From: a virus
Lineage: Duplodnaviria > Heunggongvirae > Uroviricota > Caudoviricetes
Reading direction: 5' to 3' (one strand)
Virus record (IMG/VR): IMGVR_UViG_2896607866_000004
Coordinates: 1-40,991 of that record
Length of the DNA stretch: 40,991 nucleotides
The stretch's first letter is position 1; each line of letters begins with the position of its first letter. A model generated the notes under the pieces. It made no database searches. It saw only the letters and a program-made list of their open reading frames with translations, and had not been told where the DNA came from. The translations under genes were made by a program, and so were the position numbers. Below, one piece after another: positions 2,214-14,126 of the stretch.

Positions 2214-2468
2214 TTAACCGGAACTTGCATTTTTGGCACCTGGTTGTTTCTGGTTTTCGATCCATCGCATAATTTCTTCGATGTTGTACAGGCATTCACT
2301 GTAATGCCCTGGATCACCTTCTACAGCGTAATGACGGTATTCTTTTCCCTGCATCCATGACTTTCTTCTGGCCCGCTCGATGGTGCCAGGCTTTAGCCCT
2401 GTTGATGCAATGAGGACTCTCTCTGTACACCATTTGCTGGGGGTTATCTGATAGATGATTGTCTGCAT
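2214..2468 (-). CDS. xis: excisionase-like protein (84 aa)
   Basis: Small basic ORF immediately upstream of int in the same orientation; size and position typical of lambdoid Xis. Confidence 0.6.
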   Translation of the reverse strand: MQTIIYQITPSKWCTERVLIASTGLKPGTIERARRKSWMQGKEYRHYAVEGDPGHYSECLYNIEEIMRWIENQKQPGAKNASSG

Positions 2469-2487
2469 GCCAACCTCATAAAACTTT

Positions 2488-2621
2488 CATCCACGGCAGT
2501 GGCACCAGACCTCAAACATTCGTTTCACAATTTCACGACAGTAGAAACCGTCAACATCTCGCGTCAGGTCGTAGTGGTTGCCGTAACGCTGGTGGACCCA
2601 TAGCTCAAACGCTTTATTCAT
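2488..2621 (-). CDS. hypothetical small protein (44 aa)
   Basis: ATG at 2621 with AAGGAAG SD 7 nt upstream; MNKAFELWVHQRYGNHYDLTRDVDGFYCREIVKRMFEVWCHCRG. Not in ORF track (under 60 aa). Confidence 0.3.
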
Positions 2622-2624
2622 TTT

Positions 2625-2867
2625 TTACTTCCTTTGCATTGCGCGTAATTTCTTCAGGTGCTTTTCTTGTTCTGTTTCAGCCAGAATCTTGTGATATTCC
2701 AGGTGGTCAATATGCTCGAACAGGCTACTGAATTCACCGATGCGTACTCGCCCGGTACGTCCGTCCATCCTCCGAAAGAACACTGAGTGCTCAGTACTGC
2801 GAGTAATTTCTACTGGGTATCCGGCTCTGTCTGTGTATATCTGCCCGCGTTGAATCAAAGCGAACAT
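2625..2867 (-). CDS. hypothetical protein (about 80 aa from the internal ATG; ORF track calls 2625..2903)
   Basis: Open frame in the leftward operon. A tiny upstream ORF (2872..2955, GGAGGTG SD) overlaps the long form, so the internal start MFALIQRG… is more plausible. Confidence 0.35.
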   Translation of the reverse strand: MFALIQRGQIYTDRAGYPVEITRSTEHSVFFRRMDGRTGRVRIGEFSSLFEHIDHLEYHKILAETEQEKHLKKLRAMQRK

Positions 2868-2990
2868 GTGGTTATCCCCATCGACAAATCGAGTACACAA
2901 CAAACGCTACTGCGAATACCATCCCCAGAGTTACGATTGCATCAGGCCAGCTCATTGATTCACCTCCTGCGGCGTCCTGGTATTCGATTT

Positions 2991-3560
2991 TCATTCCGGA
3001 TGCTCCTGAGCCACGTTGAAATCGCCATGATCACGACAAGGCATCACAACAAATTCAGGATTGCCATACATTGAGTTGATGATGGAATCAAACTGAATTC
3101 TGACCGCTTGCCCGTCACCGGAGGGACGTAACTGGACGGGAATAAATTTACGCTCACGACCAAACATCTTCTCTGGATAACTCAGGTAACCCGCCTGGAG
3201 CACCGGGTGAGTACAGCGGTCAAACTTTTTCGGAATGATGCGATCCAAATCCGGAAAACAACCGTCCACCAGTTTAATGCCGGTAATGGACAGTCGTCGC
3301 TGAAACTGGTCGCGATGAACAGCGATCGGCTCTTTACTAAAAATCAGCTCTGTCGTTTCGGCTTTGGCCGGGACGCCCCCTTCGAACTGGACAATGATGT
3401 TTTTCTTCGTCCGGATGCCGTGAGCCATGCGCAGTGCCACGGAACCATTGGTTGCCTCAATATGTTTCGGCGTGATGTGAAGACCGTTCAGGTAATAACG
3501 AACGTCGTTTTTAGCAGCGCACACCAGAGCGGCGCGAATAAGTTTTGACTGGATGATCAT
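2991..3560 (-). CDS. hypothetical phage early protein (189 aa)
   Basis: ORF whose start overlaps the stop of the upstream antirepressor-like gene (ATGA at 3557-3560); no family recognised. Confidence 0.5.
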   Translation of the reverse strand: MIIQSKLIRAALVCAAKNDVRYYLNGLHITPKHIEATNGSVALRMAHGIRTKKNIIVQFEGGVPAKAETTELIFSKEPIAVHRDQFQRRLSITGIKLVDGCFPDLDRIIPKKFDRCTHPVLQAGYLSYPEKMFGRERKFIPVQLRPSGDGQAVRIQFDSIINSMYGNPEFVVMPCRDHGDFNVAQEHPE

Positions 3561-4306
3561 GCTTTATCCTCCCATCCGATCACCTGGAAAAGCCCCATCT
3601 TCGGGTGATACCAGCGTGTGCCGCGTGGTTCAGCCTCTGACATCATTTGGTGGAACGCCGCCATAAATGGCTCAAGCTCGACGATAGCCCTGCGAGACAA
3701 CAGACCGTCCGGAGTCATGAATTCGTGGGTGTCTGTAGGAATTTGATATGCGTTCACCAGATTCCGACACTTGGCGTCACTCATTCCACTTTTGGCTACC
3801 ACCTGGCGGTAACCGACATATCCGGCGCGCATTGTGCCGCGTTTGATGTTCTCCACAGCTTTGGTGACCGTTTCGATCTTCTTTTCAACATGACTCAGGC
3901 GCTTTTGCTGGCGAACGGCATCGGCGGCCATTGCAGCGATCATCTCCATTTCCGTCAGCGGCGCGTGAGTTCGGAAATAGCTGTTAACCAGTTCGCGCTG
4001 AACCTGCCAGGCCAGATCGTCGGTGAAGGATTTCACCAACATCAAATAACCGGATTCGACCAGTACAATTCCTGCTGCTGCAAATTTTGAGAAAGTACCG
4101 TCAGGGAGGTGTCGACGAATTTCGTCGGAACCTAATTCGAAGTAGTCTTCCCCTTCAATAAGACGAGACTTGTTTTCGCGGAAATTGCGTCCCGCTGTTC
4201 CGTCCGGGCGTTGGTGCACTTCATCAATCATCGCCAGCGTCACCACGCGCTGACCGCGATATTCGATTACCGGAAACTGTTTGTTGTTGATGGTTACAGT
4301 ATTCAT
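3557..4306 (-). CDS. antirepressor-like protein, ORF6N-type N-terminal domain plus KilAC (ANT) C-terminal domain
   Basis: Start MNTVTINNKQF at 4306 with GGAG SD 6 nt upstream (ORF track long form starts 4381). N-terminus matches the ORF6N/Bro-N pattern; the C-terminal 130 aa are about 75-80% identical to the C-terminus of the 10803..11516 product. Confidence 0.7.
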   Translation of the reverse strand: MNTVTINNKQFPVIEYRGQRVVTLAMIDEVHQRPDGTAGRNFRENKSRLIEGEDYFELGSDEIRRHLPDGTFSKFAAAGIVLVESGYLMLVKSFTDDLAWQVQRELVNSYFRTHAPLTEMEMIAAMAADAVRQQKRLSHVEKKIETVTKAVENIKRGTMRAGYVGYRQVVAKSGMSDAKCRNLVNAYQIPTDTHEFMTPDGLLSRRAIVELEPFMAAFHQMMSEAEPRGTRWYHPKMGLFQVIGWEDKA

Positions 4307-4349
4307 TTTTATCTCCAGACAGCCCGGCGTGTAATACCGGGCATATGTA

Positions 4350-5180
4350 TTACTTAACCTGAATAAATGGTGTGTTGGCACCGCTGGTCATGTACTGCAG
4401 CAGTGTGCCGTTCCATTTATTGATGGCTTCCAGCTCCATAACACCGGGGTTCTGGCGCAGAGCTTCACCGCGTAAACGAATTGCATCGGCTTCGGCCTGG
4501 GCTTTTGTGCGAATCGCATCAGCCTGTCCGGCAGCTTCTGCACGCAGCATGTTGGCTTCTGCTTCGCGTTGTTTAACTTCCTGCTCGCGTTGCAGTGTTT
4601 TCTGGTTTGCCGTGACTTTGGCGTTAATGCTGTCGATAACGGTTGGTGGGTACTCTGGCTTACCCACATATGAGAGGCTCATTACCTGAATACCGATGGG
4701 TGTCATTTCTTCCTGGATGTCTTTTAGAGCGGCATCCAGTAATTCAGATTTACCGCCGTCAATAAATTTGTCGGTGGTCATTTTGCTGGCCAGCCGATTG
4801 AGTGCGTCGGCGATCTTCTGGCGCAGGTCTGTATCGGTAATGTCATCCACGCCTTTGCGGTAGGTCTGAAATACCGTGGTAACTTTCGATGGATCAACCT
4901 TATAGGCCACGCCGATGTGATAACCGATGGTTGTGCCGTCGCTCATCTGGAAGCTGAATGGATCATCGTAGGTCTTCATTTGTTTGAAGGTCGGGAAAAT
5001 GTAAACTTCAGTATTCCAGCCAGTCCAGTAGCGACCAACACCGACCACCTCACCGACACCTTTGTCGTCGCCCAGTTTGTTGACTTTGATACCCACATTA
5101 CCTGGTTCAACGCGATCGCAACCTACAAGTCCGAAGACAGCCAGACTGACCGCGAAAACAAGCGCAATTGTTTTTTTCAT
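4350..5180 (-). CDS. SPFH/band-7 (prohibitin-like) domain lipoprotein (276 aa)
   Basis: N-terminal signal peptide with lipobox LVGC; central region resembles SPFH domains by eye; C-terminal coiled-coil-like Ala/Glu/Gln-rich tail; strong GGAGG SD; start overlaps upstream stop (ATGA). Confidence 0.65.
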   Translation of the reverse strand: MKKTIALVFAVSLAVFGLVGCDRVEPGNVGIKVNKLGDDKGVGEVVGVGRYWTGWNTEVYIFPTFKQMKTYDDPFSFQMSDGTTIGYHIGVAYKVDPSKVTTVFQTYRKGVDDITDTDLRQKIADALNRLASKMTTDKFIDGGKSELLDAALKDIQEEMTPIGIQVMSLSYVGKPEYPPTVIDSINAKVTANQKTLQREQEVKQREAEANMLRAEAAGQADAIRTKAQAEADAIRLRGEALRQNPGVMELEAINKWNGTLLQYMTSGANTPFIQVK

Positions 5181-7118: not shown

Positions 7119-7421
7119 ATGAGCAGAAAAACCCAACGTTACTCTAAAGAGTTCAAAGCCGAAGCTGTCAGAACGGTTCTTGAAAATCAACTTTCGATCA
7201 GTGAAGGCGCTTCCCGATTATCTCTTCCTGAAGGCACTTTAGGACAATGGGTTACCGCCGCCAGAAAAGGGCTCGGTACTCCTGGTTCCCGCACGGTGGC
7301 TGAACTGGAATCTGAAATTCTGCAACTGCGTAAGGCGTTAAATGAAGCTCGCCTTGAGCGCGATATATTAAAAAAAGCAACAGCGTATTTTGCACAGGAG
7401 TCGCTGAAAAATACGCGTTAA
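7119..7421 (+). CDS. IS3-family transposase OrfA (100 aa)
   Basis: MSRKTQRYSKEFKAEAVR… HTH/leucine-zipper-type OrfA; slippery site near its 3' end. Confidence 0.85.
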   Translation: MSRKTQRYSKEFKAEAVRTVLENQLSISEGASRLSLPEGTLGQWVTAARKGLGTPGSRTVAELESEILQLRKALNEARLERDILKKATAYFAQESLKNTR

Positions 7422-7456
7422 TCGAACAATGGCGACAACAATTTCCCATTGAAGCG

Positions 7457-8275
7457 ATGTGTCAGGTATTTGGTGTATCCAGGAGCGGTTATTACAACTG
7501 GGTACAGCATGAACCCTCAGACAGAAAACAAAGTGATGAGCGGCTAAAACTGGAGATTAAGGTGGCACATATCCGCACTCGCGAAACATATGGAACCCGG
7601 CGGCTCCAGACGGAGCTGGCAGAGAATGGCATCATCGTTGGTCGTGACCGACTGGCACGTCTTCGTAAGGAGCTAAGGCTACGCTGTAAGCAGAAACGCA
7701 AGTTCAGAGCGACTACGAACCCGAACCACAATCTGCCAGTTGCGCCAAATCTGCTGAACCAGACGTTCGCTCCTACAGCACCAAATCAGGTCTGGGTGGC
7801 GGACCTGACGTATGTTGCCACACAGGAGGGATGGTTGTACCTCGCTGGCATCAAAGATGTTTATACGTGCGAAATTGTCGGCTACGCCATGGGAGAGCGC
7901 ATGACAAAAGAGCTGACAGGTAAAGCCCTGTTTATGGCGCTCAGGAGCCAGCGCCCACCTGCCGGGCTAATCCACCACTCTGATCGAGGTTCACAGTACT
8001 GCGCATACGATTACCGGGTCATACAGGAGCAGTTTGGTCTGAAAACATCAATGTCGCGTAAAGGTAACTGTTACGACAACGCTCCGATGGAAAGCTTCTG
8101 GGGAACGCTGAAAAATGAGAGCCTGAGCCATTATCGTTTTAATAACCGGGATGAAGCCATCTCAGTAATACGGGAATACATTGAGATTTTCTACAATCGT
8201 CAGCGTCGTCACTCTCGTCTGGGGAATATCTCCCCGGCAGCCTTCAGGGAAAAATATCATCAGATGGCTGCTTAA
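7457..8275 (+). CDS. IS3-family transposase OrfB (DDE catalytic domain), expressed as OrfAB by -1 frameshift
   Basis: 272-aa ORF in the -1 frame relative to OrfA; 100% identical to the OrfB of copy 2. Confidence 0.85.
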   Translation: MCQVFGVSRSGYYNWVQHEPSDRKQSDERLKLEIKVAHIRTRETYGTRRLQTELAENGIIVGRDRLARLRKELRLRCKQKRKFRATTNPNHNLPVAPNLLNQTFAPTAPNQVWVADLTYVATQEGWLYLAGIKDVYTCEIVGYAMGERMTKELTGKALFMALRSQRPPAGLIHHSDRGSQYCAYDYRVIQEQFGLKTSMSRKGNCYDNAPMESFWGTLKNESLSHYRFNNRDEAISVIREYIEIFYNRQRRHSRLGNISPAAFREKYHQMAA

Positions 8276-8534
8276 AAAAGAACAAATGGTAGTGTCCGCT
8301 ATTGCCAGTACACCTCAATTGCCTTTACAACCTCCGGGAGAAGTTCCTGGTTTGTATAATCAAAGTTATCAACATGGAGAACAGTTATGTTTTCGAACTT
8401 TTTCATGGCTTCCTCAGCTGACTTATATGTTCTGCTATATAGCGAGTCTCAGAAGTGTTTTCATATTGAGACTGTTTCCGCAATGATTGATAAAAATGTT
8501 CGCATGTACCTTGAGGGGCGAAGCGGCGATTTTG

Positions 8535-9083
8535 TCACCATTGGTATTGGTTCTTCCGTAGAAGAGCTTCGCGAGATAAGGAGCAAACTTGTTGAGATGC
8601 GTCATGGTGTTGCTGCTCCTCACTTTTTGGTTGCTCCGGAGGAGTAACCTCGCCAGTTAACAGCCACATCGGATCGCAGCCAAGAATATTTGTCAGTGGG
8701 ATAAGCATACTGATAGTTGGTTCATACTCTCCGCTCTCCCACTGGATGATGACTTCTTCATCCACATCGAGCAGCCTGGCGAGTTCGGCGGTTGTTAAGC
8801 CGCAGGCTTCGCGTTGGGTGCGAAGGTTAACCAGCCAGCTTTCAGGGAAGGATTGTTTTTGTTGTGCAGGAGAAGCCGCAGATAGAGCATATTCATGGAT
8901 AAATTCCATTACCTCAATGCCCAGTTCCTTTGAGCGAGCACAATCCAGAAGATGGAATGTGCGTACAGCACTTAGCAAATTTGCAATATTTAATGCAAAG
9001 GAATCAAGTTCTAAGCCCTTAAGCGTAACACAGCCGCAGTTGATAAAATTAGTTGTTTCTGGAGTTGCTTTTAGTGTCTTCAT
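8535..9083 (-). CDS. HTH (XRE-like) domain protein, 182 aa (or about 122 aa from internal ATG 8909)
   Basis: HTH motif …TQREACGLTTAELARLLDVDEEVIIQWESGEYEPTISMLIPL… in the middle of the ORF. Lies immediately downstream of cI, after the cI terminator. Confidence 0.5.
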   Translation of the reverse strand: MKTLKATPETTNFINCGCVTLKGLELDSFALNIANLLSAVRTFHLLDCARSKELGIEVMEFIHEYALSAASPAQQKQSFPESWLVNLRTQREACGLTTAELARLLDVDEEVIIQWESGEYEPTISMLIPLTNILGCDPMWLLTGEVTPPEQPKSEEQQHHDASQQVCSLSREALLRKNQYQW

Positions 9084-9229: not shown

Positions 9230-9919
9230 CTAACCAAATCTGTTTATGTTGAATGGTACTGATGAGATCACTTTAGACTGGATATAAAGCAGAGCTAACC
9301 CCTCTTTTTCGATGCTCCATGGTTGATAATTGGGGTTATCAGATAACACCATGATTTTGCTTCCAATTTTTTGAAGCCTTTTCACGTAGCATTCTCCATC
9401 AAAACAAAATGCATAAATACCATCGCCATCAAAATAAGTTACTGTCTTATCAAGAAAAAGAAGGTCACCAGGTGAGATTGTGGGAGCCATACTGTCTCCT
9501 CTGGCGTTACCTATTTCTATATTTTTGAATGCCCGATTTCCAACAAGACGTCGGGCATATTCAGGATCAAGTTCTATTGAGCGCACTACATCTATCAAGT
9601 CACCACGGACATGAGTTCCATCACCGCAACTAAACTCAACATCAAGGACATTAAACACGACGCTATCTGTTCTTGTCTGGTGTTTCTCTTGCGAGGAAAA
9701 GGTTGGTGAGGAGTCTTCACCTAAGAACCAGGATTGTGGATAACCGCTAATCTCTGATAAATGCGCGAGCTTATCACTCCGTGGAAATGTTTTTCCTGTT
9801 GTCCAGTACTGCACTGATTGCGCACTCACACCTAACTTGCGGGCCAGTTGAGCCTGAGTCCATCCTTTTGCTTTCAGCATCGCGGCTATTCGATTTTCCG
9901 TGTTTTTGACGTTCTTCAT
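9230..9919 (-). CDS. cI: CI-type repressor (N-terminal HTH, C-terminal S24 LexA-like peptidase domain)
   Basis: HTH …GWTQAQLARKLGVSAQSVQYWTTGK…; C-terminal GDSMAPTI… with downstream Lys (…YVKRL…) typical of the Ser/Lys dyad. First ATG is at 9919 (ORF track extends to 9925 via TTG). Divergent from the cro-like gene. Confidence 0.85.
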   Translation of the reverse strand: MKNVKNTENRIAAMLKAKGWTQAQLARKLGVSAQSVQYWTTGKTFPRSDKLAHLSEISGYPQSWFLGEDSSPTFSSQEKHQTRTDSVVFNVLDVEFSCGDGTHVRGDLIDVVRSIELDPEYARRLVGNRAFKNIEIGNARGDSMAPTISPGDLLFLDKTVTYFDGDGIYAFCFDGECYVKRLQKIGSKIMVLSDNPNYQPWSIEKEGLALLYIQSKVISSVPFNINRFG

Positions 9920-10052
9920 GACCAAATCCTGTGGGTTTCTTTACAAGGATAAATCTTTACTTGATTTTAGTGTATTCGATCCTTTTGCAACTTGCATGTT
10001 AATTTAAACTTGATGTATTCTTGATTTATAAAGTTAATGTTGGTGCTTTGTT
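9920..10052. promoter_or_regulatory. divergent cI/cro promoter-operator region (OR-like)
   Basis: 133-bp AT-rich intergenic region between divergent cI and cro-like genes. Contains an 11-bp palindrome TGCAAcTTGCA (about 9986-9996) and three CTTGAT motifs (about 9958-10026). Individual operators not assigned. Confidence 0.5.
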
Positions 10053-10325
10053 ATGAAAGGAAATGATTACGACAAACTTCGTGCATTAATTGCGCAAAAT
10101 GCCATAGCGCGAAATCTGGGTGTGACACCGCAAGCGGTGAATCAGTGGTTTTCAAAAAGCACAATTCCTGCCCGTTTCGTTTTACGCGTATGTGAAGTAG
10201 TTGCATGTAAGGTCACGCCGCATGGCTTAAGGCCAGATCTTTATCCTCACCCTGAAGATGGAATTCCTGATTCGTTACGCAAAATTTCAAATCCAAGCTT
10301 AGCGCACACAGAGGATGAGAAGTGA
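10053..10325 (+). CDS. cro: Cro-like HTH protein (90 aa)
   Basis: Small ORF divergent from cI; motif …LGVTPQAVNQWFSKSTIPARFVLRV… resembles Cro/YdaS-type HTH. Confidence 0.6.
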   Translation: MKGNDYDKLRALIAQNAIARNLGVTPQAVNQWFSKSTIPARFVLRVCEVVACKVTPHGLRPDLYPHPEDGIPDSLRKISNPSLAHTEDEK

Positions 10326-10689: not shown

Positions 10690-10802
10690 GTCGAACCTCC
10701 TTTGGTTCTTTTGTTTATAGGGATCAAAAGGATAACTGAAGGATGGTTCGGCACCAACAAGTACGAATGTGCGGAATCTTAAAAGAATTTATCCGTAAGG
10801 AG

Positions 10803-11516
10803 ATGGCAGTGAACACCGCAATTTTTAACGACAAAGTATCCATGACCAGCGTTGAAATCGCAGAGCTGGTTGGAAGTCAACACGGCAATGTCAGAATATC
10901 AATAGAGCGTCTGGCAAAACGCGGGGTGATTCAACTTCCTGCAATGCAAAAAGTTGAGAACGAACAATCATTTAGCCAAAACAAATTCACAAACGCATAT
11001 ATTTTCGAAGGCGAACAAGGCAAACGCGACAGCATCATTGTCGTCGCACAACTTTGCCCGGAATTCACTGCCCGCCTGGTAGATCGTTGGCGCGAACTGG
11101 AAGAGCAGGTGCGCAAACCAATGAGCGAAATCGAAATGGTTGCCGCGATGGCTCTTGAAGCCGTTCGTCAGCAAAAACGCCTCGACAAGATGGAAGAAAA
11201 AGTCAGTCACGTTACTGAAACTGTCGAACAAATCAAAAGAGGCACCATCCGCGATGGTTATGCAGGCTACCGTCAGCTGGTGGCGGAAACGGGTATGTCA
11301 GATGCGAAATGCCGCAATCTGGTGAACATCTATCAAATTCCAACTGATACTCACGAATTTCTTACTCCGGACGGATTGTTGTCACGCCGCGCAATTGTTG
11401 CAGTGGAACCGTTTATGGCTGCTTTCCATCGTATGATGAGCGAAGCGGAACCGAGAGGAACTCGTTGGTATCACCCGAAAATGGGGCTGTTCCAGGCGCT
11501 GGGCTGGCAGGGGTGA
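10803..11516 (+). CDS. antirepressor-like protein, Rha/AntA-type N-terminal domain plus KilAC (ANT) C-terminal domain
   Basis: N-terminus …SMTSVEIAELVGSQHGNVRISIERLAKRG…; C-terminus near-identical to that of 3557..4306. Start ambiguous (ATG 10803 abuts the SD; GTG 10809 has better spacing). Confidence 0.7.
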   Translation: MAVNTAIFNDKVSMTSVEIAELVGSQHGNVRISIERLAKRGVIQLPAMQKVENEQSFSQNKFTNAYIFEGEQGKRDSIIVVAQLCPEFTARLVDRWRELEEQVRKPMSEIEMVAAMALEAVRQQKRLDKMEEKVSHVTETVEQIKRGTIRDGYAGYRQLVAETGMSDAKCRNLVNIYQIPTDTHEFLTPDGLLSRRAIVAVEPFMAAFHRMMSEAEPRGTRWYHPKMGLFQALGWQG

Positions 11517-11730: not shown

Positions 11731-12039
11731 TTACACGAAGCGGATCTGGAGTTTTTTCCCTGTTGCGCGTGCAAATTTTTTCAGTGTGGCAAATGATGGT
11801 CCGCTGACACCTGAGGCAAGATTGCTTTCCATTCTGGTGATGGCGGTTGCTTTGGTACCCATGCGTTCAGCAACTTCAGCCTGGGTGAGACCAGCTTCTT
11901 TGCGTGCGGCCAGCATTTCATCAAGCAGTGCGAACTCGTCGGCGATGGCGTCGTATTCTGCTTTAAAAGCCGGGTCATCCATCCATTTAGCTGCCATTTC
12001 ATCGTGTGTCATGATTGGTGGGTTACGTTTACCAGTCAT
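11731..12039 (-). CDS. HigA-like antitoxin (XRE-family HTH, 102 aa)
   Basis: HTH …LTQAEVAERMGTKATAITRMESNLASG…; AGGAGGT SD; start overlaps the 3' end of the upstream toxin gene by 11 nt. Confidence 0.7.
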   Translation of the reverse strand: MTGKRNPPIMTHDEMAAKWMDDPAFKAEYDAIADEFALLDEMLAARKEAGLTQAEVAERMGTKATAITRMESNLASGVSGPSFATLKKFARATGKKLQIRFV

Positions 12040-12358
12040 GCTTAACCTCCTTCATTCTGGTTTCAGCTTTTTTACGCTCAGCTGGTGGAGTTTTTTGAGT
12101 TTTCTTGATGAAGCTGTGCAGCATGATGATGCGCTTCCCTGTCAGTGTGCAGTAAAAAACGCGGGCAATGCCATCGCTGCCTTTAATCCGAAGCTCAAAA
12201 AGCCCATCACCAAAGGCGCTGGTGTGAGGTTCTCCGAGATTGCTGCCGTATACCTTCATGCGTTCAACAAGATGCTGGTATCTGGCACGCATACTCAATG
12301 GAAGCTGATCGACCTCCAGTCGGACCTCTTCACTGTAGTATTCGATAGTGTAGTTCAT
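12029..12358 (-). CDS. HigB-like toxin (RelE/ParE superfamily, Gp49-type), about 109 aa
   Basis: …YYSEEVRLEVDQLPLSMRARYQHLVERMKVYGSNLGEPHTSAFGDGLFELRIKGSDGIARVFYCTLTGKRIIMLHSFIKKTQKTP… resembles phage Gp49/HigB-type toxins; toxin precedes antitoxin. Start placed at internal ATG 12358 (ORF track uses TTG 12394). Confidence 0.6.
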   Translation of the reverse strand: MNYTIEYYSEEVRLEVDQLPLSMRARYQHLVERMKVYGSNLGEPHTSAFGDGLFELRIKGSDGIARVFYCTLTGKRIIMLHSFIKKTQKTPPAERKKAETRMKEVKHDW

Positions 12359-12395
12359 ACAGCAAAACATAACAAAATCGTTATATCTGCACAAT

Positions 12396-12460
12396 ATATT
12401 GATTCTGCAATTTCGGGACGTTACACTGTCTCTGCACCTTATAAAGCGGGTGCCGGGATT
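12396..12460 (+). repeat. 65-bp direct repeat, copy 1 (leader/5' region of Rha-like gene 1)
   Basis: ATATTGATTCTGCAATTTCGGGACGTTACACTGTCTCTGCACCTTATAAAGCGGGTGCCGGGATT; 64/65 identical to 13052..13116. Confidence 0.8.
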
Positions 12461-12676
12461 TGCACCCCGGAATTGTCAACGGCGATATACGACGCGCCAG
12501 CGTCTTTTTTATCGTCCGCGCTCACGCACGCCAGAATTATGGTGGGCTGGGCAGGGGAGCCGAAAGGCTCGCCGGTCTCCGTTGACGCCGGTAGTGCAAA
12601 CCCTGTTCAGTCCGCCACCAGCGAGATTTGCACCTCCGGTGGTGGAAGTTTTCCACAGTCAACGGAGGCTGCCATC

Positions 12677-13039
12677 ATGGCTACAGTCCCAACCCACTCA
12701 TTCCTCAAAATTGAGACCGTCAACGGCAAGGCCGTTATTTTCTCTTTGCATGTGGCCTGCCACTTTAAGCGCATGCACCAGAACATCGTAGACAAAATCG
12801 AGTATCTGAACTGCTCGCGCGAATTTTTTACCCGCAATTTCATACCGGGTACTTACCACATCTATGACGACTCTCTGCGTGGTTATTACATCACCCTTGA
12901 TGGTCTGATGCTGCTTCAGCTTGGGTTAAGTCTGCGCACAATGCGGTACTACGAGAGTTGCATTGAAGCGTTCCATGAGGCTGAAACCGTCCAGGTGCAT
13001 TCCGCTTTCCGTCGTCATCAACGGGAGGTGCACCTATGA
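12677..13039 (+). CDS. Rha-like phage regulatory protein 1 (120 aa from ATG 12677; may extend upstream)
   Basis: GGAGG SD 8 nt before ATG 12677; MATVPTHSFLKIETVNGKAVIFSLHVACHFKRMHQNIVDKIEYLNCSREFF… resembles the Rha N-terminal domain. The frame is open far upstream (artefactual 524-aa ORF) but has no canonical start near the conserved leader. Confidence 0.5.
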   Translation: MATVPTHSFLKIETVNGKAVIFSLHVACHFKRMHQNIVDKIEYLNCSREFFTRNFIPGTYHIYDDSLRGYYITLDGLMLLQLGLSLRTMRYYESCIEAFHEAETVQVHSAFRRHQREVHL

Positions 13040-13896
13040 TCCGCTACCTGAATATTGATTCTGCAATTTCGGGACGTTACACTGTCTCCGCACCTTATAA
13101 AGCGGGTGCCGGGATTGGCGTCCTGAAATTCAATATAGAGCATAACCGCGCTCATGCGGTTTTTTCGTGTCATGAGCATTGCTACGCCCAAATTATGGTG
13201 GGGCGTGCAGGGGCATCGCAAGATGCGCCGGGTTCTATGTTGACCGGTTACGCCAACCCTGTACGTCTCACCACCTCTGTGATTGGCGTCCCATGTGATG
13301 AGTTCTTTGAATTCAACATAGGGGCTGTCACCATGACTACTCTCCCAACCCTCTCTCAACCTGAAATTGCCATCGTTGATGGTCAGGCTGTTACTTCATC
13401 CCTGGCTGTTGCTAACTTCTTCTCTAAACGTCATGACGATGTTCTGAAAAAGATCCGCATTTTGGATTGTTCTCCAGAGTTTTGTGCCCGCAATTTTGCG
13501 GAGACATCAATTTTGGTACGCCAGCCCAACGGCGGTACTCGCAAACTTCCCTGCTACCAAATCACCCGCGACGGCTTCGCCTTCCTTGCTATGGGCTTCA
13601 CTGGTAAACGTGCCGCCCGGTTCAGAGAGGCATACATCAATGCCTTTAACCAGATGGAGAGGAGCTTATCAGGAGCTGGTGCGGCTGACATGTCATCTGT
13701 CGCACAAAACGCCAGAGGCGTATACCTGCATTTGCGTGAAATCCATCAAATCTGGACAAGCCAGCTTTACCCAATGCTTAAGGCCGTTGAATCTCCGCTG
13801 GCTGGCAAACTGTACGACCGTGTAGGTGATGCTGTTTTTGGTGCTGCACTTGTTGATTCCAGGCTGAATGGTTCTGACAAGGAGGTGCGCCCATGA
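13036..13896 (+). CDS. Rha-like phage regulatory protein 2 (286 aa from ATG 13036; alternative start ATG 13333 giving 187 aa)
   Basis: GGAGGTG SD 5 nt before ATG 13036, which overlaps the upstream TGA. Rha motif …AIVDGQAVTSSLAVANFFSKRHDDVLKKIRILDCSPEFCARNF…YQITRDGFAFLAMGFTGKRAARFREAYINAFNQME… begins at residue 100. Confidence 0.6.
   Translation: MIRYLNIDSAISGRYTVSAPYKAGAGIGVLKFNIEHNRAHAVFSCHEHCYAQIMVGRAGASQDAPGSMLTGYANPVRLTTSVIGVPCDEFFEFNIGAVTMTTLPTLSQPEIAIVDGQAVTSSLAVANFFSKRHDDVLKKIRILDCSPEFCARNFAETSILVRQPNGGTRKLPCYQITRDGFAFLAMGFTGKRAARFREAYINAFNQMERSLSGAGAADMSSVAQNARGVYLHLREIHQIWTSQLYPMLKAVESPLAGKLYDRVGDAVFGAALVDSRLNGSDKEVRP
13052..13116 (+). repeat. 65-bp direct repeat, copy 2 (5' region of Rha-like gene 2)
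   Basis: 64/65 identical to 12396..12460; the single difference (TCT/TCC) is synonymous in the open frame. Confidence 0.8.
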
Positions 13897-14126
13897 TCCG
13901 CCACATCGTTAATTTCCTGTATCACCGATACAACCATTGCCCCCGTGTGGGGCAGTGGTTCACCACCAGCAACGGCTACGTTCTGCGGGTTTGCCTGGTC
14001 AGTACCGAAAGCCAGAAGGTTGTCTGCCAGGTTCAGGGACGTACTCATACCCTGAGTTATCCGCTGGTGGCGTTTCAGTCCGGAAAAATGTTTAAACGCC
14101 TGGGAGGTGGCTATGCGTCCGTCTGA
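13893..14126 (+). CDS. hypothetical protein (77 aa)
   Basis: AAGGAGGTG SD and ATG overlapping the upstream stop in the same ATGATCCGC context as the Rha-like gene 2 start. Confidence 0.4.
   Translation: MIRHIVNFLYHRYNHCPRVGQWFTTSNGYVLRVCLVSTESQKVVCQVQGRTHTLSYPLVAFQSGKMFKRLGGGYASV

Follow-up and report, generated by a model that had tools for sequence, protein, structure and literature searches.

The DNA analysed here is a stretch of 40,991 nucleotides (nt) from a Caudoviricetes virus (IMG/VR record IMGVR_UViG_2896607866_000004, positions 1 to 40,991; referred to as the window), in which two Rha-type genes in tandem, rha1 and rha2, are each preceded by a leader of 284 nt. Each leader is very probably an RNA immunity cassette of the type known from phages P4 and P1, and the two form a tandem pair of different specificities, each gating its own Rha-family (Bro-network) gene. 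The element that hosts them is a lambdoid Escherichia coli prophage, with the cassettes in the early-right operon between a cro-like gene and the replication genes. Systems of this kind are already known and their residence in Bro-network genes has already been noted; the novelty, which is modest, lies in tandem arrays of differing specificity. The components of the two cassettes are as follows (positions are those of the window).

12399..12427, + strand: promoter-like element of cassette 1 (TTGATT 12399-12404, 17 nt, TACACT 12422-12427)
12434..12510, + strand: isrK-1, an IsrK / P4 seqA / a1b1-type RNA (a1 12459-12465, b1 12474-12482, terminator hairpin 12491-12504, T-run 12505-12510)
12535..12622, + strand: C4-1, an antisense RNA of the P4 CI / P1 c4 type (b′ loop 12573-12586, a′ junction 12594-12600)
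12627-12633 and 12658-12671, + strand: a2 and b2, the downstream targets of C4-1, with b2 over the Shine-Dalgarno (SD) sequence GGAGG (12664-12668) of rha1
12677..13039, + strand: rha1, encoding a divergent Rha-like protein of 120 amino acids (aa)
13023..13047, + strand: array junction (SD GGGAGG 13023-28, ATG 13036 overlapping the rha1 stop as ATGA, then ATCCGCTAC)
13055..13083, + strand: promoter-like element of cassette 2 (TTGATT 13055-13060, 17 nt, TACACT 13078-13083), inside the 79-nt repeat described below
13090..13166, + strand: isrK-2 (a1 13115-13121, b1 13130-13141, terminator hairpin 13144-13161 and T-run)
13191..13278, + strand: C4-2 antisense RNA (b′ loop 13232-13243, a′ 13250-13256)
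13283-13289 and 13313-13323, + strand: a2 and b2, the downstream targets of C4-2, with b2 ending 9 nt before the rha2 AUG, over an AGGGG SD-like stretch
13333..13896, + strand: rha2, encoding a Rha-family protein of 187 aa (PF09669, 93 bits, E 1.8e-26)

IsrK and C4 RNAs in the two leaders

Over their whole length the leaders are ~71% identical (208 of 293 alignment columns), and they share a direct repeat of 79 nt (12396-12474 and 13052-13130; 92% identity, spacing 656 bp), the first 65 nt of which differ at one base between the copies. The initial annotation, made from the letters and open reading frames (ORFs) of the window, had described a 64/65 repeat before the tandem Rha-type genes and the motif TTGATT-17-TACACT in both blocks; both are present. 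The promoter-like motif agrees with the consensus at 8 of 12 positions, and its end lies 7 nt ahead of the first position of the isrK model, with transcription predicted to start near 12434 and 13090, respectively. A sigma-70 scan did not list it because 8/12 is under the scan threshold of 9/12. Comparison of 74 homologous loci places the start of the conserved block at the −35 hexamer and not at any start codon, and the DNA 5′ of this hexamer varies by locus; between the window and a related E. coli O121 prophage, the homology breaks exactly at the −35 of cassette 1.

The window was scanned with Rfam at gathering thresholds, and the isrK model (RF01394; gathering score 50) was matched in full length on the + strand by both isrK-1 (61.8 bits, E 5e-11) and isrK-2 (61.9 bits). 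Both C4 elements matched RF01695 (gathering score 45) at 80.1 bits, likewise in full length (positions 1-87), with an E value of 3e-14 for C4-1. The family identity of the RNAs was established by this computation. The c4-a1b1 model (RF03163) was matched by cassette 2 alone (13077-13129), at 23.9 bits and below its gathering score of 46.7, and P4 itself scores 44.1 bits with this model, also just under that score; RF03163 was not used for membership, and the isrK model covers the same element.

The isrK hairpins are followed by T-runs, namely TTTTTT after the hairpin at 12491-12504 and TTTT after that at 13144-13161, and in the Rfam isrK model both sites correspond to the 3′ terminator hairpin. 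Four terminator-like sites were found in the region compared with 2.4 ± 1.6 in shuffled sequences, a count that is not significant alone; the case for termination is thus based on the homologous positions and the isrK model and not on the number of sites. Among isrK variants, 37 of 38 distinct homologues have, immediately 5′ of the T-run, a hairpin with a stem of 4 bp or more, and at least four different stem sequences occur. A hairpin plus T-tract before each Rha gene, kept in position but not in sequence, had been noted in the initial annotation, and the homologues bear this out, the hairpin being the isrK terminator.

The main element of each cassette, which the initial annotation had missed, is the 88-nt C4 element between the terminator and the Rha start. 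The minimum free energies of C4-1 and C4-2 are −50.7 and −46.0 kcal mol−1, respectively, and the predicted fold consists of the family's long closing stem and two internal hairpins. Covariation across homologues had been put forward as a check on a structural RNA, and it was found: in 34 distinct homologues, 99.7% of cells in the C4 fold are paired, with both-sided changes at 13 of the 27 pairs, whereas slid-strand controls paired in only 31-49%. Helix 3 was fixed by the search pattern and is uninformative in this respect. Each element carries an AUG at its 5′ end, in frame with rha1 for C4-1 (12539-12541) and with rha2 for C4-2 (13195-13197). The 3′ end in cassette 1 is CCACCA, resembling an RNase P substrate.

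Complementarity of the antisense loops and their targets

C4 RNAs work through two exposed segments: b′ lies in the second hairpin, as its loop, and a′ is the junction that follows this hairpin. In both cassettes, b′ and a′ are complementary to b1 and a1 in their own isrK and to b2 and a2 before their own Rha start. In cassette 1, a′ (GUGCAAA, 12594-12600) faces UUUGCAC in both a1 and a2 (12459-12465 and 12627-12633), and the downstream pairing comprises 14 bp for b′/b2 and 7 bp for a′/a2, the GGAGG under b2 being located 8 nt before the ATG at 12677. In cassette 2, a′ is ACGCCAA (13250-13256) and a1 and a2 are UUGGCGU (13115-13121 and 13283-13289). The loops and all four targets therefore differ between the cassettes in a coordinated manner, and since loop and target sequences differ, the two cassettes are of different specificity.

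Summed duplex energies from RNAduplex favour the cognate combinations. On the downstream target of C4-1, the sum is −32.2 kcal mol−1 for the cognate RNA and −22.0 kcal mol−1 for C4-2; on that of C4-2, it is −26.4 kcal mol−1 for the cognate RNA and −20.2 kcal mol−1 for C4-1. Overall, cognate sums are −26 to −32 and non-cognate sums −16 to −22 kcal mol−1, leaving a 2×2 margin of 4-12 kcal mol−1 for the cognate pairs. The same was found across 98 distinct units, in which cognate Watson-Crick runs have a mean length of 6.8-9.0 nt versus 4.3-4.8 nt with loops of other specificities. Together with the covariation of the fold, this complementarity of loops and targets is established computationally.

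Rha genes and the array junction

The starts of the Rha genes, placed at 12678 and 13335 in the initial annotation, were corrected to 12677 and 13333. The rha1 product matches Pfam PF09669 at 29.3 bits (E 1.3e-6), which is borderline with respect to the cut-off of 29.9; rha1 and P4 kil show homology in the translation-initiation region and in the first residues, and GGAGGCTGCCATCATGGCTACA is common to both. A further terminator-like hairpin is located 45 nt into rha1 (12722-12746; AACGGCAAGGCCGTT then ATTTTCTCTT); it could be due to chance or could be a termination site when rha1 is untranslated.

Between the units, the junction at 13023..13047 duplicates the rha2/orf77 junction at 13881-13904 (repeat D4, 88% identity), and the same junction is found at the array joints of other loci. 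It marks the boundary of the repeat unit and gives the frame of cassette 2, which resembles that of P4 eta, a coupled start. From its ATG on the ATGA overlap with rha1, preceded by the SD, a long Ash-Rha2 frame of 286 aa extends over 13036-13896, and overlapping stop and start signals link rha1, this long frame, orf77 (13893-14126) and the next gene. The SD and ATG on the upstream stop had been listed in the initial annotation as evidence for coding; they are real, yet as a duplicate of the rha2/orf77 junction they provide a coupled, eta-like start.

An open frame without amino-acid selection

Read in the frame of the Rha gene that follows it, neither leader contains a stop, and the translations match PF10554 (Phage_ASH) at 49.0 and 41.4 bits (cut-off 26). 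Fused frames of this kind are named 'ash family protein' or long Rha / Rha fusion proteins in PGAP/RefSeq, and the Rha/Ash proteins of Stx 'Eru' phages have been assigned domains of unknown function (PMC8951638). It could accordingly be argued that the leader encodes a functional N-terminal Ash domain (Bro network) fused to Rha, the RNA matches being secondary or coincidental; the strong SD and ATG with which the frame of cassette 2 opens over the rha1 stop would suit such a domain, as would the absence of stops described below.

The frame was examined in 63 distinct leaders of the Rha-associated subfamily, using an ungapped alignment anchored on the Rha ATG; because MAFFT introduced gaps into 98 of 334 columns, a minority of the sequences may be misregistered at some upstream positions. 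Differences among the leaders are spread evenly over the three codon positions (15447 : 15398 : 14384) and are mostly non-synonymous, with synonymous codons at 17.5% of the differing codons, a proportion not above that of either other frame. The adjoining Rha coding sequence (CDS; first 300 nt), taken as a control, showed 4634 : 3369 : 13548 and 63% synonymous. When pairs were grouped by divergence band, the third-position share was 0.30-0.35 in the leader versus 0.56-0.81 in the Rha CDS, and the synonymous share 0.20-0.27 versus 0.54-0.82. Thus, no purifying selection on amino acids was detected in the 63 leaders at any divergence band, with the Rha CDS as control. The initial annotation had named codon-level selection on the leader as a check, and on this count the coding reading fails.

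The frame is nevertheless kept open. Not one stop occurs in frame 0 of the 63 leaders, versus a mean of 60 in within-column shuffles, all of which contained at least 30 sequences with a stop; the statement that both regions are open in the Rha frame, made from the two copies in the window, therefore extends to the subfamily. The other two frames resemble the shuffles (120 versus 113 stops in frame +1 and 291 versus 273 in frame +2), and the avoidance of stops is present separately in the promoter-isrK half and in the half from C4 to the start codon. Repeating the codon test on close pairs only and the stop test on sub-segments gave the same outcome. The lack of protein-level selection and the avoidance of stops are both established computationally.

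The leader thus does not represent a conserved protein domain, because the codon-position and synonymous patterns are non-coding and the homology, also between the two cassettes, starts at the −35 hexamer instead of at a start codon. Conservation tracks the stems of the RNA, in which changes are compensatory, and where the sequence varies it does so together with the antisense targets. Moreover, PF10554 also matches the obsolete ORF of P4 for a 137-aa 'cI gene product', which lies over the CI RNA (8168-8584 of the P4 sequence), and in distant relatives stops occur 8-36 codons past the C4 AUG. On these grounds a functional Ash domain is very unlikely, and at the level of sequence evolution it is refuted. 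Of the two options left side by side in the initial annotation, a regulatory leader or a conserved N-terminal domain, the first is upheld by isrK, C4 and their targets, while the second does not survive the codon test on homologues. The most fitting view of the 'Ash domain' is that it is an IsrK-C4 leader conceptually translated in the eta frame. Hundreds of genes in E. coli and Stx phages that are annotated as 'ash family protein' or as Rha with an 'Ash domain' would then be RNA immunity cassettes read as protein.

A different identity for Ash was considered and rejected. PF10554 has been taken as a marker of P4 epsilon (PMC8628076); Pfam places epsilon in PF25738, and PF10554 on the old P4 cI ORF.

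Tandem arrays among relatives

A pattern scan of IMG/VR yielded 119 loci; adding the window and one E. coli chromosome gave 137 C4 cores with 41 combinations of b′ and a′. The a′ and b′ sequences are modularly shuffled among loci. Arrays of two to three IsrK-C4-Rha units were found in 13 sources (L001 at 2329-4501, L007, L047 and ten others), mostly with a spacing of 653-656 or 847-865 bp, and no a′/b′ pair was repeated within any of these 13 arrays. Among 5,426 complete E. coli genomes, 86 carry the two-cassette array of the window (87-99% identity) and 1,470 carry parts of it. The O121 prophage, which is 99.5% identical, harbours three consecutive cassettes.

These data bear on a simpler explanation, in which each leader would be a plain transcription attenuator acting in cis, without a trans-acting antisense RNA, and the second copy merely a recent duplication. 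The terminator-like hairpin and T-run ~60-75 nt past the putative start of both leaders, kept in position with a variable sequence, are what such an attenuator would look like. However, it accounts neither for the covarying 88-nt C4 structure 3′ of the terminator nor for the paired complementary sites on either side of C4, which change in step with its loops, and a recent passive duplication is at odds with copies that are ~71% identical, with coordinated changes in the loops and all four targets and with specificities that are never repeated within the arrays of 13 sources. We give this explanation hardly any credence. The proposal of a structural RNA or attenuator in the initial annotation was right as to a structured RNA, for which the support is now stronger than had been proposed, whereas a simple cis attenuator is too narrow, since this is very probably an antisense system whose regulator and targets would lie on one transcript.

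The literature searched yielded no description of tandem C4/IsrK arrays of different specificities in lambdoid or Stx-type prophages, and no quantitative demonstration that the 'Ash domain' is non-coding-like with an enforced open frame.

Genomic context of the cassettes

In the window, the gene order is cI-like, cro-like, Rha-family, a Gp49/HTH pair, the two cassettes and the replication genes (DnaC-like ATPase and DnaB-type helicase). The neighbouring genes on the left of the cassettes are the following.

9230-9925, − strand: cI-like gene
10053-10325, + strand: cro-like gene
10743-11516, directly 3′ of the cro-like gene: third Rha-family gene (257-aa ORF, PF09669, 31 bits)
11731-12394, − strand: toxin-antitoxin-like pair, a Gp49-like ORF of 121 aa (PF05973, RelE/HigB-type) overlapping an HTH_3 ORF of 102 aa

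No IsrK/C4 element precedes the third Rha-family gene at 10743-11516. The Gp49/HTH pair is divergent from cassette 1; at its place, the O121 relative has a BRO-N gene and the third IsrK-C4 cassette. Because the cassettes lie directly 5′ of the replication genes and gate antirepressor-type regulators, they are likely to influence induction and, hence, toxin release in Stx phages.

Near the immunity region (cI-like 9230-9925, cro-like 10053-10325), two ORFs of 100 and then 272 aa (7119-8275) resemble by eye OrfA and OrfB of an IS3-family insertion sequence (IS). A tRNA cluster of four genes on the + strand (18432-18739; Rfam tRNA, 56-70 bits) lies 3′ of the replication genes. Near the right end of the window, full-length CssrB (a Shigella small RNA; RF02799, 230 bits) and IS009 (RF02111, 129 bits) were matched at 39809-39988 and 40745-40948, respectively.

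That the cassettes are decayed, unused remnants of P4-like or lambdoid immunity modules is scarcely credible: a putative IS element is present in the window, the toxin-antitoxin-like insertion replaces the upstream cassette of the O121 relative and the upstream coupling partner of cassette 1 is lost, but in both cassettes the isrK and C4 elements are still full-length and high-scoring, the terminators are undamaged and the loops fit their targets perfectly, the SD overlap included; the downstream genes are likewise intact, and the same array recurs in the 86 E. coli genomes.

Proposed mechanism of gating

By analogy with P4, P1 and Gifsy-1, from which we infer the transcript ends, C4 processing, repression, decoy role and ribosome override, a sequence of events can be proposed for the two P4/P1-type cassettes. 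A constitutive promoter, TTGATT-17-TACACT, would start a transcript at ~12434 (13090 in cassette 2), and most transcripts would end at the intrinsic terminator, yielding a short IsrK/seqA-type RNA that carries a1 and b1. Read-through transcripts would carry the 88-nt C4/CI RNA, which would be excised and stable. In modules of the P1/P4 type, RNase P and other activities release C4/CI from the primary transcript as a stable, immunity-conferring RNA of ~70-80 nt; excision in the window is supported indirectly by the CCACCA end of cassette 1 and by the processing of STnc1160 in Gifsy-1 (PMC4825925). Its b′ and a′ segments would pair with b2 and a2 5′ of the Rha start and, with b2 over the SD, would prevent translation of Rha. 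The untranslated RNA may be prone to early termination, as in P4 and P1, which would also restrict transcription into the replication genes. The switch point would be set by the a1 and b1 segments of the IsrK RNA, which would act, in cis or in trans, as competitors for the C4 loops.

Ribosomes on transcripts from an upstream promoter could cross the cassette via the open frame that starts at the ATGA overlap. Their transit would unfold the terminator and C4 and separate the target duplex, allowing expression that is insensitive to immunity, which is the role of eta in P4. The open but unselected frame fits translation through the leader for such a regulatory purpose, as with P4 eta and Gifsy-1 orf45, more than it fits a functional domain. 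Tandem cassettes with an open, unselected frame offer a natural system both for the evolution of orthogonal antisense specificities and for the study of ribosome transit overriding RNA-based repression.

Several points weigh against RNA immunity cassettes of this type. The promoter-like motif, with just 8/12 consensus positions, went unflagged by the scan and was kept as a positionally conserved candidate. The specificities overlap, as non-cognate duplexes still reach −16 to −22 kcal mol−1; they are not perfectly separate because the b′ loops have a GUUGAC core in common. The stop-avoidance test was made on related sequences, in which events are non-independent, and in an ungapped register. 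Distant C4 loci have in-frame stops, some of them 8-36 codons after the 5′ AUG of C4, and the open frame is therefore a trait of the Rha-associated subfamily and not of C4 RNAs generally. No same-strand gene lies upstream of cassette 1, where the toxin-antitoxin-like pair occupies the opposite strand, so the eta-like override cannot work for this cassette as it does in P4, there being no gene to couple to. Finally, promoter activity, termination, C4 processing and repression are, at this locus, all inferred.

As for the tandem arrangement, we tentatively suggest, as a possibility less likely than its alternatives taken together, that the arrays act as an RNA gate with several locks, in which each cassette has its own a′/b′ key and the cassettes are chained by ATGA-coupled frames before the replication genes, or in which each lock serves as immunity or decoy. 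On the first variant, one opened lock could relay ribosomes through the next. On the second, each lock could be an RNA immunity or decoy directed against a different co-resident or superinfecting phage, or a P4-like satellite, with the same key. If this were true, the 41 combinations and the never-repeated specificities would be the outcome of diversifying selection acting, in lambdoid and Stx-type prophages, on an RNA code for heteroimmunity.

Comparison with P4, Gifsy-1 and P1

The P4 immunity region is matched by the isrK model at seqA (8615-8692) and by the C4 model at CI (8420-8507), and follows the same order as the cassettes: promoter (putative in the cassettes), a1b1/seqA with terminator, C4/CI, and a target over the ribosome-binding site (RBS) of the first gene. 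With cassette 1 it shares a nearly identical terminator stem and an identical initiation region, GGAGGCTGCCATCATGGCTACA; relative to the window, it has ~87 extra nt between seqA and CI. In P4, the transcript initiated at a constitutive promoter inside eta ends early through CI/seqA interactions and yields a stable CI RNA, and full-length Eta is translated only from the upstream promoter, coupled to the upstream gene, with Eta translation blocking termination (PMC10111431, citing Forti et al. 1999). The P4 sequence accords with this: the ATG of eta (8767) overlaps the stop of the upstream gene as ATGA, and the frame passes the promoter, seqA and CI before it reaches kil, with which it is in phase (ATG 8365, 65 codons). 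Cassette 2 is alike in that its long frame (13036-13896) starts 5′ of the putative internal promoter, coupled to rha1, and is in frame with rha2. The C4 and isrK models have also been reported to detect CI and seqA within Bro-network genes (PMC10111431). P4 gates kil, whereas the cassettes of the window gate a Rha-family protein, although the first residues are homologous; and, unlike P4, the element in the window is a lambdoid prophage with its own cI/cro-type repressor, in which cassettes of differing specificities occur two to three times in tandem.

IsrK has been equated with seqA, and C4 with CI, and such systems occur in lambdoid Salmonella prophages (PMC3632133). The isrK-orf45-anrP region of Gifsy-1 is the founding member of the Rfam isrK family, and its downstream gene is an antirepressor-type regulator, as here. 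Transcription yields both a short, terminated IsrK RNA and an mRNA that reads through; the short IsrK acts on the read-through mRNA and enables translation of orf45, to which the antirepressor-like anrP is coupled, and an RNA of ~80 nt, STnc1160, is processed from the read-through transcript (PMC4825925). Expression of the downstream gene depends on translation within the leader (orf45, from the C4 5′ AUG). In the window, the frame equivalent to orf45 has no stop, runs into Rha and extends 5′ through isrK and the putative promoter. A Gifsy-1-like cassette in the scan (locus L040, 590-1050) has a 45-codon ORF from the C4 5′ AUG with an ATGA overlap with a 185-aa Rha-like gene, and a near-consensus promoter, TTGACA-17-TATATT, in AT-rich, stop-rich intergenic DNA. 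The comparison suggests that Gifsy-1 orf45 is the 3′ half of the 'Ash' frame. The published Gifsy-1 model stresses activation by IsrK, without the C4 antisense framework.

The immI region of P1/P7 (c4, icd, ant) is the founding member of the Rfam C4 family, with the antisense RNA and its targets on one transcript, as is predicted for the window. Differences in the a′/b′ elements reportedly underlie P1/P7 heteroimmunity, and 5′ maturation is said to be by RNase P, according to work of Citron and Schuster in 1990 and of Hartmann and colleagues in 1995. The a′ and b′ elements of P1 immI pair with two sets of sites, a1 and b1 upstream and a2 and b2 downstream, the latter over an RBS, and the window has the same complementary sets. 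P1 masks the RBS of icd, to which ant is coupled, whereas in the window b2 would mask that of Rha directly; the regulated protein family differs as well, and the a1b1 segment of the window contains an intrinsic terminator.

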